A model generated the notes under the pieces. It was not told where the DNA came from. It did no database searches and saw nothing but the letters and a program-made list of their open reading frames with translations. Shown piece after piece: positions 16,306 to 32,007 of a stretch of 64,000 nt of DNA; position 1 is the first letter of the stretch, and the number at the start of each line of letters is the position of its first letter. The stretch is from a virus (Duplodnaviria > Heunggongvirae > Uroviricota > Caudoviricetes): IMG/VR virus record IMGVR_UViG_3300021399_000141; one strand, 5' to 3'. The translations under genes were made by a program, and so were the position numbers.

Positions 16306-16539
16306 GTATAACATGTGGTAATCATCCACTAACGGTAAGTTTCGTACCGATGAAACTTTTACCGGAGCTTCATAAAACCTTGCTCTGTCTCGTAGAACTA
16401 CGGTATTCCATTTTGATTATCGGTGGAACTTCTCTATGACCGATATTCGTATTAGGTTTTAAGGTGTCATCCGACTTATGGTACCTAATTTAAGGAAACT
16501 GCGCCCTTCGTCTTTTCAGACTTCGCGAGTTTGTATTGA

Positions 16540-16742
16540 AACCTCTCCAACCACTCCCTTCGTGACATAGGTCAATATCCAAGGGCTGTTACTATCCTAG
16601 AGACCAATTCAAGCAACCGATATGTGAATAGTTGGATTTGTATTGAAACTTCTCCAGCTATACCCTTCGTGACATGGGTCAATATCCAAGGGCTGTTACT
16701 ATCCTAGAGACCAATTCAAGTAACCGGTGAGTGAATAGTTGG
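16540..16742. repeat. two tandem copies of an approximately 100-bp repeat
   Basis: copies 16540-16644 and 16646-16742 about 90 percent identical; each ends in gtgaatagttgg, also found at the adjacent tRNA-like gene. Confidence 0.7.
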
Positions 16743-16797
16743 GCTCGAACCAACGACATACCTTCTTTGGTGCTCTACCATCTGAGCTATATTCACT
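16731..16797 (-). ncRNA. tRNA-like gene lacking a canonical anticodon arm
   Basis: perfect acceptor GTGAATA/TATTCAC, D-arm GCTC-AGATGGTA-GAGC, T-arm GTTGG-TTCGAGC-CCAAC, but only 17 nt between D and T arms. Confidence 0.4.
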
Positions 16798-17164: not shown

Positions 17165-17210
17165 GTTCTTCTATATAATATATAAGAAAGAATGTCAAAA
17201 TTTTAGTGGG
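17165..17210 (-). promoter_or_regulatory. phage promoter motif CACTAAAATTTTGACA-N-TTATATATTATATAG upstream of tRNA-Ser
   Basis: member of the roughly 20-copy bipartite motif family; 30 nt upstream of tRNA 5-prime end. Confidence 0.5.
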
Positions 17211-17312
17211 AAAATAAAAAAAAAATAAGGTATTATCCTTCTAGGTCATCCATCAGAGGACGTTCATCCACTTCAAATACCGGTTCTCTTTTCATAATAA
17301 TCCTTTTTTTTG

Positions 17313-17386
17313 TGGACCCTGTGGGACTTGAACCCACGACCCCCTGCTTGCAAAGCAGGTGCTCTAGCCAACTGAGCTAAGGGCCC
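17313..17386 (-). tRNA. tRNA-Ala (TGC)
   Basis: anticodon loop TTTGCAA; D-arm GCTCAGTTGGCTAGAGC. Confidence 0.7.
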
Positions 17387-17537
17387 TTAGAGGCGGTGCA
17401 ACGACTTTTCTATCCGCCGTTAAGTCACTACGTCCGTTGCTGACGTCTGTGTCGTTCCTACTCCATCTTGTACACAGAAGTTCGCTGAAACTATCTTTTT
17501 GTTGCCACATTGTTAAGAGGTGTGGAGCCGCGAAAGG

Positions 17538-17610
17538 AGCCTCCTGTCAGACTCGAACTGACGACCTGTTCATTACAAGTGAACCGCTCTACCAACTGAG
17601 CTAAAGAGGC
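17538..17610 (-). tRNA. tRNA-Thr (TGT)
   Basis: anticodon loop CTTGTAA; T-arm GTCAG-TTCGAGT-CTGAC. Confidence 0.7.
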
Positions 17611-17614
17611 AAAA

Positions 17615-17636
17615 AGCAACCGGCGAAGGTTGCTCT
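17615..17636 (-). terminator. hairpin plus T-run immediately upstream of tRNA-Thr
   Basis: gcaaccggcgaaggttgc stem followed by TTTTT on minus strand. Confidence 0.4.
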
Positions 17637-18487
17637 ATGTCATCTGCCTGAGAACTTAGGCTTTGGTGATATCATTGCGATAGGGTTGGACCTATCTGTT
17701 CACACTCTGTATTTCTACAGCGTAGATACCATGCACATCAGTTTTGAAAAACTGCCAAACTCTTACTCAACATCGTCGTAAATTTCCTTTCTGTACCACC
17801 TACTTGCGGATTCGAAGGGTGCCCCCTCCTCGGTCGATACTTACTTGTACTCTTTTGTGATTTTCCTTGCGAGAATCTCACATCCTCGTATTGCAGAGGA
17901 ACAAGTGCATTTTAGATGTCAAGTGTCGCACACTTTTGCTGACCTATATTAAACTTTACTGATTCATTATCGTTGTCAGTAGTAGGGATCGAACCTACAG
18001 TCTAGTAACCATTTTTAAGAGATGTGGTGCGACCCAACGCATTCGTACCTTTTGGATACGACCCACGTAAACACCTCTCTGTCCTTCGTGCTTCCTACAG
18101 CACTATTAACTGTCCGTTTCGTTCAAATCATTTCTGATGTTAAACTAGTCCTTCCGTGCAGCAGCAATTGATTAGGAGTTCTTTCACCGCTACCAACTTA
18201 AACCTTTATTGGGTTTTTATCCCTCAAGTCAGGAGTTTCACCCGACTCACTCGTACTTCAGTCTCACCATTTGGCATTGACGCTGATCCCTTTTGCGGAT
18301 TCTCCCATACGAGTGATGTTCTAGTTCTTTTCCGTGGACAGGTTCTTTTATCAACCTGCGCTCTAACTGTGTTACTGGGTTAGGGCTTTATAGTATTACT
18401 ACTTTATCCTTAACAGCTCCGAAAGCGAACTGGAGACCTTCCGCGGACACTTCCGCTAGTCTAACAAGGTGGTTTATTTCCTTGTTC

Positions 18488-18524
18488 AATTATAATATAT
18501 AGAAATGATCAAAAATTTTAGACC
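18488..18524 (-). promoter_or_regulatory. phage promoter motif variant (TCTAAAATTTTTGATCA ... TATATATTATAAT)
   Basis: heads an ORF-free roughly 850-nt minus-strand region. Confidence 0.4.
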
Positions 18525-19407: not shown

Positions 19408-20325
19408 TTAGTAATCTGAATTTGCTACCTGACAAGTCAAGAGACCTAGTTCTCTCCACATCGACACACATTTGTTGCTGTCTTCGAAGACACATAGCAC
19501 GTTGTACTTGTCTTGTATCTGTTGTTCGTACATTTTGCGTTTGTATACTTCTCCTGAAGAGAAATCTCTCTGACTGCGAGTAATCAGCTCCCATCTGTTG
19601 TTCAGACCCTGTTTTGGGTCTTGTAACCATTTCAAGGTATCCCGTTGTGCACATTTGTTGCGACCAGTCAAGAAGAATACCTTGGTACCATTCGCCATGT
19701 GGAAGTTCAACAGATCACGCAAACGGGGATCGATCTTGTCCGTCAATAGTCTACCCCATTCGAACGGCTCTCGCCCCTGATGTAATGCCAACGTAGCATC
19801 TAGATCACAGATGATACAGAGCGGAAGGGTGGGTTCTGGTTGTCTGATGACTCTCTTGTCTGTGAGCTCGTCCCGGTACCTCTCATGATAGAACGTATCG
19901 TAGAACTTGGCAATAACATCTCGAGGAATGTATTCTTTGGCGCGAACTCCAATCTCTTTGTTGCGTTTGTAACTTTCAGCGTACGGAACATATAATTGCT
20001 TGATCACCAATTCCGCGCCTGTTTCGTTTGCGAGCTTTTCGAACTCCTGAATACGCCGTGGATTGATGTTGTAGGCATCGACAATGATGTCCCAGCTCAG
20101 ATGTGGATATCTGTTGAATTTATCCAGGATAGTTTGACGCTCGGTCTCTAGAACAGAGCCCAGGGTATTTATAATATAACCCTTATCCGTGGATTCCCAA
20201 CTCAGGTCTCTGGTGCTGATCATATGTACACAGATATCCGTAGGTGCCTCGTTCCAGTGTTTCCTTGCCCAAGTCGTCTTACCACTTCTGGGCGGGCCTT
20301 GTAATAGAATGATTTGTCTTTTCAT
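19408..20325 (-). CDS. pnk: polynucleotide 5-prime-kinase/3-prime-phosphatase (Pnkp-like)
   Basis: N-terminal Walker A GPPRSGKTTWA; C-terminal HAD motif I ICDLDATL (DxDxT) as in T4 Pnk phosphatase domain. Confidence 0.65.
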   Translation of the reverse strand: MKRQIILLQGPPRSGKTTWARKHWNEAPTDICVHMISTRDLSWESTDKGYIINTLGSVLETERQTILDKFNRYPHLSWDIIVDAYNINPRRIQEFEKLANETGAELVIKQLYVPYAESYKRNKEIGVRAKEYIPRDVIAKFYDTFYHERYRDELTDKRVIRQPEPTLPLCIICDLDATLALHQGREPFEWGRLLTDKIDPRLRDLLNFHMANGTKVFFLTGRNKCAQRDTLKWLQDPKQGLNNRWELITRSQRDFSSGEVYKRKMYEQQIQDKYNVLCVFEDSNKCVSMWRELGLLTCQVANSDY

Positions 20326-20756
20326 TGTTTTAGTTGGTTTTGGTATATCAACGCCAATATTTTGTTTTGATATTCGACTTTGAAGATCTGTTCTACAAAG
20401 TCTGCGAGATCGTTTGCTGCATTGATGACCTCTTGCGTCCCATAGGAATGATGATATTCCCAGGCGCGATCTACAATTTGAACGCAGCTTCCGTAACTCA
20501 AATCCTCATGATTAGAACATATCGTTGCCGCCAAATTGTCTCTGAACTTGCCTTCCTCTTGATGACGTTTGTTACGTTCTTGCAGTATAATGCGCTCTTC
20601 GGCTTGTCTGATCGCTTCGGCTACTTTGGCTTCTTCTTTACGATGTGCTTCGCGAATAGCATGTAACTCATCCAGATCGTGGATGTCGTTCAATTTTGAA
20701 ATGTCGTTATTTTGCATTTTTCTTATAGTTTTCAAGTAAACGAATGATGTCTTCAC
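20322..20756 (-). CDS. hypothetical protein
   Basis: ORF track 144 aa. Confidence 0.45.
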   Translation of the reverse strand: MKTSFVYLKTIRKMQNNDISKLNDIHDLDELHAIREAHRKEEAKVAEAIRQAEERIILQERNKRHQEEGKFRDNLAATICSNHEDLSYGSCVQIVDRAWEYHHSYGTQEVINAANDLADFVEQIFKVEYQNKILALIYQNQLKQ

Positions 20757-21066
20757 GTCCCACTGGATTAGATGAATGAGATGTGAACTCAGGAAGAGGG
20801 TTACCTGTCTCTATGCACATATCCACCAGATACTTAGCACAGTCATATCCTGTAGGACCAAGTCCGAGATCGTGATCGAAACAAACGAGATCAGGCCATG
20901 TCTCAAGAATAAGATGTTGGATAAACTCGTTCTTGCTTTTGACCCAGCTTACTACGCACTCGTTCAAAGGGACATCTAGGAACTCTTCCGCTGCGTAAGC
21001 AAGATAATCTTTCCACTCGGGGACGTTAGGGTCCCTCATGTCATCTATCCAAAGAATATGCTTCAT
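20707..21066 (-). CDS. hypothetical protein
   Basis: ORF track 119 aa. Confidence 0.45.
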   Translation of the reverse strand: MKHILWIDDMRDPNVPEWKDYLAYAAEEFLDVPLNECVVSWVKSKNEFIQHLILETWPDLVCFDHDLGLGPTGYDCAKYLVDMCIETGNPLPEFTSHSSNPVGREDIIRLLENYKKNAK

Positions 21067-26761: not shown

Positions 26762-26768
26762 TTCATTG

Positions 26769-26841
26769 CCGTCTTTCGAGGGCTCGAACCTCGCATCTAC
26801 TGGTAGAATCCAGCGCTTCGTCCATGCAAAGCTTAAAGACG
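26769..26841 (-). tRNA. tRNA, anticodon unresolved (6-nt loop ATTCTA)
   Basis: perfect acceptor CGTCTTT/AAAGACG and T-arm CGAGG-TTCGAGC-CCTCG; anticodon stem CTGG/CCAG closes a 6-nt loop. Confidence 0.4.
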
Positions 26842-27052: not shown

Positions 27053-27125
27053 CGGAGTTGACGGGAGTCGAACCCGTTCCGAACTGCGTGACAGGCAGAC
27101 ATCTTAGCCGTTTGACCTCAACTCC
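27053..27125 (-). tRNA. tRNA-Asp (GTC), second copy
   Basis: perfect acceptor GGAGTTG/CAACTCC; loop CTGTCAC. Confidence 0.55.
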
Positions 27126-30504: not shown

Positions 30505-32007
30505 TTACTTACTTTCTACCTTGGCTCCGGCAGAGATCACTTTGGAGTTCTCCTCCATAATCTTTCCGAGGTTTACACCGGTGGCCTGTTCCATTACGTC
30601 CATCGACTGTTTTACCAGTACCGGAACGTTGCCTGAGATACCTGATACCTCGTTACCGTTCGTACCATAGACGTGAACATCCTTGATAGACTTGAGTGGT
30701 TCAGCAACTGATGCAGCGACCTCAGGAAGTTTATCAACAACCATCTGTGCGAGAGCGGCGTGTCCGTACTCTTTGTACGCTTCGGCTTTCTTGTACATCG
30801 CTTTGGCTTCAGCCTCTCCTTTGGCTAGGATAGCAGCGGCTTCTGCCTCACCGACCGCCTTGATACCTGCTGCCTCTTGTTGACGTGCATAGAGATCTGC
30901 TTCTGCCTTGGCTTTAACAGCGAGTGCTTTCTGCTCTGCTTCGTAACGCTCGGCTTCTGCCTGACGTTTGCGTTGCTCCAATTCAGCAGCGGCATTGACC
31001 TCTTTCTGGTACTTCTCCGCATCGGCTTGTTTGTTGACTTGTGCAGCCAATGTCTTCTCCTGGATAGCAATCTCCTGCTCCTTCAAAAGCTGTTCTTGTT
31101 TGGCCTTCTCAACCTTTGCCTCGACTTCAAGTTTGTTGATTTCCTTCTGGCGCTCGTTAATACGAATCGTCTTGGCGGCCTGAGCCTCAACAGTCTTGAT
31201 ATTGATCTCACGAGCCTGTTCTTGCTCCTGGATCTTGTAAGCGGCGTCTGCCATAGCCTTTTGAGTATCTGCTTGGCGCTTCAGTTCCGCTTGCTTGACA
31301 GCTAGCTCCGTGTTGCGTTGTGCAATCTCCGTCTCGGATGCTACTCGAGCATCGTTAGCCTCTTTCTTTGCCTTTGCCTCAGCGATAGCGACATCACGCT
31401 CTGCGTTAGCTTTGTTGATAGAGGCGTTCTTCTTGATCATATAGGTGTTGTCTGCACCTAGGTCTTGAATAAGCCCTTTCTCGTCGGTGATGTTCTGGAT
31501 GTTGCAGGTAAGAATGTGGAGGCCCAACTGTTGCATATCCTTCTCAGCCTTGTTGCGGATCTGATCGGAGAATCCATCTCGGTCTAGGTTCAACTGTTTG
31601 AGCTCCTGTGTACCAACAATCTCACGCATGTTACCTTCTAGGGACTCTTGAATGTTTCGTGCAATGTCTGATGGATTGAAATTCAAGAAGTTCTTTGCTG
31701 CTGTTGCAATGAGTTCTTGATCGACACAAATCTTTGCCACTGCATCGACATTCACGTTGATGAAGTCCTTCGTAGGAATAGAAGAGGCCTTGATATCCAC
31801 AGAGAACTGTCCTAGATACAAACCATCCACCTTTTGCAAGCCTGGAATACGAAGACCACCAGTACCTTTAAGGAACTTGGGTGTTTTCAGCGGCCAACCG
31901 GAAATTACCAATGCCATGTTAGGACTCGCCTTTACATACGAAAGACACAGAATCAGAATGAGGAGTGCCAAAACCGCGCCTCCGATAATAAGTGAAATGT
32001 TTACCAT
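30505..32007 (-). CDS. SPFH/band-7 (flotillin or YqiK-like) membrane protein
   Basis: N-terminal TM helix, SPFH-like region, then a roughly 250-aa Ala/Glu/Lys/Gln-rich coiled coil; antisense plus-strand ORFs here are low-complexity artefacts. Confidence 0.55.
   Translation of the reverse strand: MVNISLIIGGAVLALLILILCLSYVKASPNMALVISGWPLKTPKFLKGTGGLRIPGLQKVDGLYLGQFSVDIKASSIPTKDFINVNVDAVAKICVDQELIATAAKNFLNFNPSDIARNIQESLEGNMREIVGTQELKQLNLDRDGFSDQIRNKAEKDMQQLGLHILTCNIQNITDEKGLIQDLGADNTYMIKKNASINKANAERDVAIAEAKAKKEANDARVASETEIAQRNTELAVKQAELKRQADTQKAMADAAYKIQEQEQAREINIKTVEAQAAKTIRINERQKEINKLEVEAKVEKAKQEQLLKEQEIAIQEKTLAAQVNKQADAEKYQKEVNAAAELEQRKRQAEAERYEAEQKALAVKAKAEADLYARQQEAAGIKAVGEAEAAAILAKGEAEAKAMYKKAEAYKEYGHAALAQMVVDKLPEVAASVAEPLKSIKDVHVYGTNGNEVSGISGNVPVLVKQSMDVMEQATGVNLGKIMEENSKVISAGAKVESK

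Follow-up and report, generated by a model that had tools for sequence, protein, structure and literature searches.

Here, we report that a gene-free region inside the transfer RNA (tRNA) array of a phage genome fragment, IMG/VR record IMGVR_UViG_3300021399_000141, is very probably the gene for a full-length GOLLD RNA (~840 nucleotides [nt]) of a divergent huge-phage clade that includes the Lak megaphages. The window, meaning the whole stretch of 64,000 nt that was analyzed, carries 36 minus-strand tRNA genes between 15971 and 28035, and the GOLLD gene would run on that same strand from ~18482 to 17645 or 17611. The GOLLD family itself (Rfam RF02032), which reportedly goes back to Weinberg et al. 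2009, is known already; what is new here is a divergent branch that standard RNA annotation misses. We take the family definition from Kretsch 2025 and a 2026 review, which describe a conserved 3′ domain, a variable 5′ domain of ~400 nt, a tRNA-island context, and linkers that can contain tRNAs. The parts of the window's RNA are as follows.

18435-18487, minus strand: 5′ leader of two hairpins, specific to the window (fold of -15.3 kcal/mol, z = -2.5)
18086-18434, minus strand: GOLLD 5′ domain of a clade-specific type, with eight covarying helices (alignment with 24 relatives)
18017-18079, minus strand: first hairpin of the Rfam model, with a CAAAAG loop (model positions 1-64)
18027-18033, minus strand: pseudoknot strand GUCGCAC, pairing with 17925-17931
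17932-18016, minus strand: GOLLD linker, variable and AT-rich (unpaired model positions 65-150)
17982-17998, minus strand: isolated tRNA T-arm, GTAGG-UUCGAUC-CCUAC (from its sequence and its alignment to the T-arms of relatives' linker tRNAs)
17925-17931, minus strand: pseudoknot strand GUGCGAC, within the invariant AGCAAAAGUGUGCGACAC block, pairing with 18027-18033
17645-17924, minus strand: GOLLD 3′ core, multihelical, with all helices of the Rfam model (RF02032 match and covariation)

In a permissive Rfam scan the region matches RF02032 on the minus strand at 17645-18079, spanning model positions 1-416 of 416 with a score of 104.5 bits (E = 4.6e-27 when searching 14 kilobases [kb] and 3e-28 when searching 0.9 kb). 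The match gives a name to the "long structured noncoding RNA" that an earlier, sequence-only reading had listed among its candidates for the region. The cmscan comparison with Rfam which that reading had proposed identifies the region as GOLLD. No group I/II intron, transfer-messenger RNA (tmRNA), 6S, or ROOL match appears in the region at E <= 10, nor any ribonuclease P (RNase P) match beyond noise, the only other rows being NEAT1_2 (12.3 bits) and archaeal RNase P (11.9 bits, cut-off 84).

The 3′ domain is supported by comparative evidence. The Rfam consensus structure was carried onto the window via the cmscan alignment and tested on 31 clade sequences aligned with MAFFT (alignment A3). In the window, 87 of the 92 model pairs are canonical. 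Across the 31 sequences, 83.8% of cells are paired, versus 37 to 48% when partners are slid by 1 to 3 columns; changes on both sides are seen in 63 of 92 pairs (22 to 37 when slid), and the covariation score is 0.54 (0.07 to 0.13 when slid). None of 500 shuffles reaches the observed values. Helix 1 of the first hairpin is 100% paired, with compensatory changes in seven of its nine pairs, and the internal loop on the 3′ side of this hairpin provides one strand of a pseudoknot. The 7-base-pair pseudoknot is paired in all cells (210/210) with six of seven pairs compensatory, compared to 6 to 71% paired in slid controls, and it closes the linker into a loop. Such a helix is one that a covariance model cannot represent; the same complementarity can be read in the Rfam consensus line (GgcGgAG / CUucguC).

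Beyond the Rfam match, the upstream 350 to 400 nt are also homologous across the clade, with conserved blocks TAAGGATAA, AGTRATG, TAAA, and GAAAAG. RNAalifold finds 41 pairs in eight helices in this 5′ domain, 38 of them with compensatory changes, and 90.7% of cells are paired versus 33 to 45% when slid. A covariance model built on the 5′ core scores the window at 71.9 bits and also recovers the held-out relatives L034 (52 bits) and L035 (44 bits; relatives are given by locus handle). The leader at 18435-18487 is not alignable across the clade. A 5′ domain specific to the clade agrees with the published description of GOLLD as conserved in its 3′ part and variable in its 5′ part, for which a P1-P13 consensus is published. 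Taken over related phages, the covariation analysis that had likewise been proposed from the sequence supports the 3′ fold, the pseudoknot, and the 5′ helices.

Among GenBank phages, the sole DNA matches of the region are in Prevotella Lak megaphages, at ~68% identity over the 3′ core, and the alignment of the window with Lak shows obvious compensatory changes. Two pattern scans of IMG/VR yielded ~34 true relatives (3 of 20 matches to the first 18-mer were chance). At 75% identity, the 31 nonredundant sequences to which they reduce form 11 clusters, and many lie on contigs of 200 to 550 kb. Relatives over the whole length come from phage contigs as long as 553 kb, with Lak-A, Lak-B, and Lak-C among them. 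In metagenomes, a scan turned up a further 82 candidates, all at ~71% identity to the window or less, and 185,579 species-representative (GTDB) genomes yielded two plausible members, both on contigs of metagenome-assembled genomes; the other 20 of 22 genome matches do not pass the motif check and probably arose by chance. None of these three sources yielded a closer relative with the window's GOLLD, the best match reaching ~71% over the 3′ core. On these sequence comparisons, the window copy is a lineage of its own and the clade is essentially confined to phage contigs. Positions 28000-52000 of the window have no megablast match among 50,697 GenBank phage records, which places the window in an undescribed phage lineage, and the nearest identified relative of the phage is a 197.5-kb IMG/VR contig.

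The Lak and other huge-phage RNAs share both domains, the pseudoknot, and the blocks AGCAAAAGUGUGCGACAC, GUGUGAAC, UCCAAC, GUUCUCAG, and UAAGGAUAA with the window. However, these RNAs are only 50 to 60% identical to the window over their full length, and the Lak loci have no tRNAs within 3 kb. In the Lak-A/B/C loci L001 to L003 and L021, we observe a GOLLD-like RNA of ~880 nt that is unannotated in GenBank (e.g., L001 2441-3322). The Lak-C-like L022 scores 59 bits for RF02032. Lak-B copies return no GOLLD row in Rfam at E <= 0.01 or even at E <= 10, so that their homology rests on alignment and covariation. Lak phages are absent from the portion of the published GOLLD alignment available to us, and GOLLD is not mentioned in those papers on Lak, huge, or jumbo phages that we searched. 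As a separate observation, loci L005, L006, L008, L013, and L024 contain a phage tmRNA (tag ending ...PAYEYA[IVL]AA) together with CUA-anticodon tRNAs ("Pyl" in ARAGORN), which suggests amber-codon recoding in these phages.

The region is bounded by elements that bear on its transcription.

18488-18524, minus strand: promoter-like motif, CTAAAAT-N14/15-TATATATTATAAT, a repeated motif that is kept in the related phage L004
17611-17636, minus strand: hairpin followed by U5, AGAGCAACC-UUCGCC-GGUUGCUUU then UU, with a 6-nt loop
17536-17610, minus strand: tRNA-Thr(UGU) (ARAGORN and Rfam)
17312-17386, minus strand: tRNA-Ala(UGC), the last gene of the cassette (ARAGORN and Rfam)
17174-17206, minus strand: second copy of the promoter motif, upstream of tRNA-Ser(UGA), where homology to L004 resumes

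The promoter-motif copy noted at 18488-18524 from the sequence proved to be a real repeated element, as its 11-nt core TATATATTATA, with up to one mismatch allowed, is found 18 times where 2.7 would be expected. Of the extended form, CTAAAAT-N14/15-TATATATTATA, there are six copies on the minus strand, at 644, 17174, 18491, 22634, 27878, and ~32517. Searches with the whole 29- to 34-nt promoter string, exact or with 3 mismatches, returned only itself or nothing, and the motif emerged from the 11-nt core. The copy at 18491 is identical base for base (GATCATTTCTATATATTATAATTGA) in L004 up to the GOLLD start. The motif is often followed by TAGAAGAACA and does not fit sigma-70 spacing; it may represent a phage-specific promoter class heading tRNA suboperons. 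Transcription would then start a few bases past TATATATTATAAT, at ~18480-18485.

At the other end, tRNA-Thr starts 35 nt past the GOLLD end. The hairpin with its T run, which had been described as lying immediately before tRNA-Thr, does adjoin G1 of this tRNA at 17610; the 45-nt stretch folds at -13.4 kcal/mol (z = -2.3), and a consensus terminator scan did not list a terminator at 17611-17636. Since no promoter motif lies between the hairpin or GOLLD and the genes for tRNA-Thr and tRNA-Ala, these two tRNAs most likely depend on the GOLLD promoter, and the hairpin would accordingly terminate transcription no more than partially. Most likely it acts as a leaky terminator or else serves to protect the 3′ end. 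Judging from this arrangement, tRNA-Thr is probably cotranscribed with GOLLD: the hairpin would stop part of the transcripts while the rest would read into tRNA-Thr and tRNA-Ala, and an RNase P cut at the 5′ end of tRNA-Thr (17611/17610) would free a GOLLD RNA carrying a protective 3′ hairpin. Such coprocessing is supported by the tRNAs that lie close behind GOLLD in relatives (in the group-2 loci a tRNA begins 13 to 16 nt after GOLLD) and by Mycobacterium phage Bongo, where GOLLD is found between two tRNAs. In one cluster, Rfam tRNA matches of 121 to 126 nt with no ARAGORN call sit immediately 3′ of GOLLD (L006 6136-6261; L008 3877-4000, L019 3736-3858, and L016 1222-1342, these three on the minus strand); they resemble a tRNA into which ~50 nt have been inserted, either as an intron or as an unusually long arm.

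The linker varies in length and content across the clade. Among 88 distinct clade members with identifiable anchors, ARAGORN calls a linker tRNA in 17 (Asn, Ile, Ser-UGA, Leu, Thr, or Phe), and two further members have an uncalled tRNA-like insert. A lone linker T-arm is found in the window only. The piece GTAGG-TTCGATC-CCTAC had been recognized in the sequence-only reading and is indeed present, at 17982-17998 and not at 17972-17990 as then placed, a shift of ~8 to 10 nt; the accompanying statement that no acceptor partner matches it also holds and extends to the D and anticodon arms. Neither ARAGORN nor Rfam, including the Rfam permuted models, calls a tRNA at this place. In L005/L016, L024, L028, L032, L034, L037, and L041, the linker holds a complete tRNA whose T-arm aligns with that of the window, and the T-arm stem of L028 is identical to the window's. 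The simplest reading of this alignment is that the T-arm is a vestige of a linker tRNA that lost its 5′ two-thirds by deletion. Members without a linker tRNA (A3 columns 125-160; e.g., L006, L008, L013, L029, and L031) often show a small linker hairpin in which both sides of the stem vary (TTTGAA...TTCAAA, TTTTGAT...ATCAAAA, TCGAA...TTCGA), which indicates that the linker is not always unstructured.

A related phage lacks the element altogether. In L004 (IMGVR_UViG_3300021255_002784), which has collinear flanking genes and a polynucleotide kinase 80% identical to that of the window, the sequence matches the window's promoter copy up to TATAATTGA and then jumps to the second copy upstream of tRNA-Ser. 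Comparison of L004 6900-8100 with window 17190-18487 shows that GOLLD, tRNA-Thr, and tRNA-Ala are missing as one block, an indel that may have arisen when the promoter repeats recombined.

Several observations weigh against the identification as a full-length GOLLD gene. The window's 104.5 bits fall under the curated Rfam gathering cut-off for RF02032, which is 150 bits, and a scan at the gathering threshold reports tRNAs only in the window. The classical GOLLDs of phiCbK, Vibrio phage PG07, and Mycobacterium phage Bongo reach 165 to 216 bits. Other clade members also match RF02032, at 59 to 99 bits, and the low score reflects divergence of the whole clade from the seed alignment and is not peculiar to the window copy. 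Three small helices of the 3′ domain (8, 11, and 13) are poorly paired in the MAFFT alignment, perhaps through misalignment or perhaps because they truly differ. The alignment used for counting the pairs of the 5′ structure is also the one that yielded this structure, and the clade's 5′-core model finds nothing in the phiCbK, Vibrio PG07, and Bongo GOLLD loci; a motif check in phiCbK also found nothing. Finally, the window copy forms a cluster by itself, with no relative exceeding ~71% identity to it over the 3′ core, so that selection within its own lineage is not measurable, and the existence of a close relative without the element, L004, implies that GOLLD is dispensable.

Other explanations of the region can be weighed against these data. 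That it is a protein-coding region masked by frameshifts or an alternative genetic code is extremely unlikely. Lak megaphages, which carry relatives of the RNA, recode TAG, and tRNA(CUA) is present in relatives, yet the window has no suppressor tRNA and the changes across relatives keep base pairs, not codons. The longest minus-strand open reading frame (ORF) within 17615-18480 is 47 amino acids (code 11), in line with the earlier statement that none of at least 60 amino acids exists there. Stop-to-stop frames on this strand top out at 57 codons in code 11, 71 with TAG as Gln (code 15), and 112 with TGA as Trp (code 4), and reading TAA as sense also gave no long frame. The description of an ORF-free minus-strand stretch of ~850 nt thus stands, with no credible frame in codes 11, 15, and 4 across 17611-18487. 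Equally unlikely is a reading built around the T-arm, either as a tRNA with an intron or in split or permuted form, or as a precursor from which several small RNAs are made; all of these but the split tRNA had been proposed from the sequence. The T-arm is canonical, with a G53-C61 closing pair and the loop UUCGAUC, but it has no partner arms and no tRNA or permuted-tRNA call, the local fold around it is no better than shuffles (z = -0.3), and it aligns to the T-arms of complete tRNAs in homologous GOLLD linkers; as a leftover of a linker tRNA it is accompanied by nothing else tRNA-like. A precursor of separate small RNAs is contradicted by the 5′ and 3′ halves themselves, which keep a fixed order in 11 clusters and are joined by the covarying pseudoknot and the linker.

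Two further explanations accept GOLLD homology but question its extent or its condition. The Rfam match is limited to 17645-18079 and the 5′ part is without similarity to three classical GOLLD loci, as would be expected if GOLLD comprised the 3′ 435 nt only and the upstream 400 nt (18086-18480) were an independent small-RNA gene or a functional 5′ leader. We consider this very unlikely, as the Rfam model spans just the conserved 3′ portion and published GOLLDs have a variable 5′ domain of this size; in addition, all 11 clusters have the 5′ domain immediately ahead of the 3′ domain, in the same order and at similar spacing, and no promoter motif or terminator separates the halves. There is a small chance, somewhat greater than for the preceding explanations, that the region is a decaying, nonfunctional GOLLD remnant heading for the loss seen in a related phage. 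L004 without GOLLD, tRNA-Thr, and tRNA-Ala would fit such a pseudogene, as would a linker tRNA already reduced to a lone T-arm and a score under the Rfam gathering cut-off. Decay is difficult to reconcile with 87 of 92 canonical model pairs, the retention of all model helices and of the 7-base-pair pseudoknot, a complete 5′ domain recovered by the clade model, and an intact promoter copy directly upstream, and the low Rfam score is shared by the clade. A full-length GOLLD gene remains by far the most probable reading.

As a GOLLD RNA, the window's element resembles RF02032 in its full-length model match, its covarying 3′-domain helices, and its linker-closing pseudoknot, and also in its layout, with a 5′ domain of ~400 nt, a linker, and a 3′ domain amounting to ~0.84 kb (published GOLLDs are ~700 to 850 nt). 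It lies in a phage tRNA array on the strand of the tRNAs, and the linkers of some members host tRNAs; in phiCbK, a tRNA-Gly is annotated inside GOLLD. It differs from the classical representatives in its lower score, in a 5′ domain not detectably related to those of phiCbK, Vibrio PG07, and Bongo, and in a linker that holds a T-arm only, and its clade is found in huge gut-type phages, not in Lactobacillales, Mycobacterium, or Caulobacter prophages and phages. ROOL RNA (RF03087) is likewise a large ornate RNA of phages and prophages; it occurs close to tRNA islands and assembles into a cage made of RNA alone. In sequence and fold it is unrelated to GOLLD, and the region has no ROOL match at E <= 10.

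Solved GOLLDs are RNA-only cages of 10 to 14 copies with caps built from the 5′ domain, a ring built from the 3′ domain, and the disordered linker on the inside; their stoichiometry depends on which 5′ helices are present (Kretsch 2025; 2026 review). Cryo-electron microscopy structures include the env-38 14-mer (9MEE) and the Streptococcus agalactiae 12-mer (9L0R). By homology to these, the window's RNA would fold into a 5′ "cap" and a 3′ "ring" domain and, without protein, would self-assemble into a closed dihedral cage of 10 to 14 copies, with the linker and the T-arm relic inside. Because all 3′-domain helices and the linker-closing pseudoknot are kept, cage formation is likely by analogy. 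The different 5′ domain means that the copy number of such a cage is not predictable.

Genes for RNA repair are found just upstream of GOLLD in the window.

19408-20325, minus strand: T4 PseT-like polynucleotide kinase-phosphatase (HAD_PNKP, 2e-32, and a P-loop kinase domain)
20707-21066, minus strand: cREC_REC cyclic-phosphate processing receiver protein (8.4e-19)

In eight Lak-type loci, a homolog of the kinase-phosphatase is likewise encoded no more than a few kb away from the GOLLD-like RNA, which is not the case in other clusters. For two small upstream ORFs (173 and 71 amino acids), PHROGs and Pfam returned nothing informative. The wider tRNA array has further peculiarities: a 107-nt unit is repeated twice at 90% identity (16530-16742), Rfam tRNA matches at 16730-16796 and 27053-27125 are missed by ARAGORN, and ARAGORN reports a "tRNA-???" with a two-base anticodon at 26768-26841. 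Beside the array, the minus strand at 30505-32007 encodes a 500-amino-acid protein with SPFH/Band 7 and flotillin domains, an unusual gene for a phage.

A GOLLD RNA would be expected to show expression that rises during lytic growth. Considering the tRNA array, the linker tRNAs of relatives, and the adjacent tRNA-repair genes, the element would most likely have, by analogy, a role in the tRNA and translation economy of the phage during lytic growth. A more specific proposal, which we regard as doubtful though less so than the alternatives above, is that the clade is a distinct subfamily of huge gut phages in which an unrelated 5′ cap gives a cage of other stoichiometry or geometry than the 12- and 14-mers, and in which the T-arm is a functional internal T-loop handle recruiting tRNAs or tRNA-binding and repair factors such as polynucleotide kinase-phosphatase and cREC. 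If such a handle were functional, GOLLD cages would be linked to defending phage tRNAs from anticodon nucleases of the host, or to repairing them.

GOLLD is among the largest and most elaborate RNAs of bacteria and phages, and recent cage structures have not explained its function. The whole clade described here, including the copies in ~540-kb Lak megaphages, lies under the Rfam cut-off or passes its filters unseen, which implies that GOLLD is probably more widespread in huge phages than annotation suggests. The clade's linkers, which variously hold a complete tRNA, a small hairpin, nothing, or in one case a lone T-arm, are natural variants relevant to the proposal that a tRNA is stored or shielded in the cage, and a natural deletion is at hand in a related phage that lacks GOLLD and two tRNAs exactly between promoter repeats. 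Finally, the occurrence of GOLLD near tRNA-repair genes in two lineages provides a testable lead toward its function.

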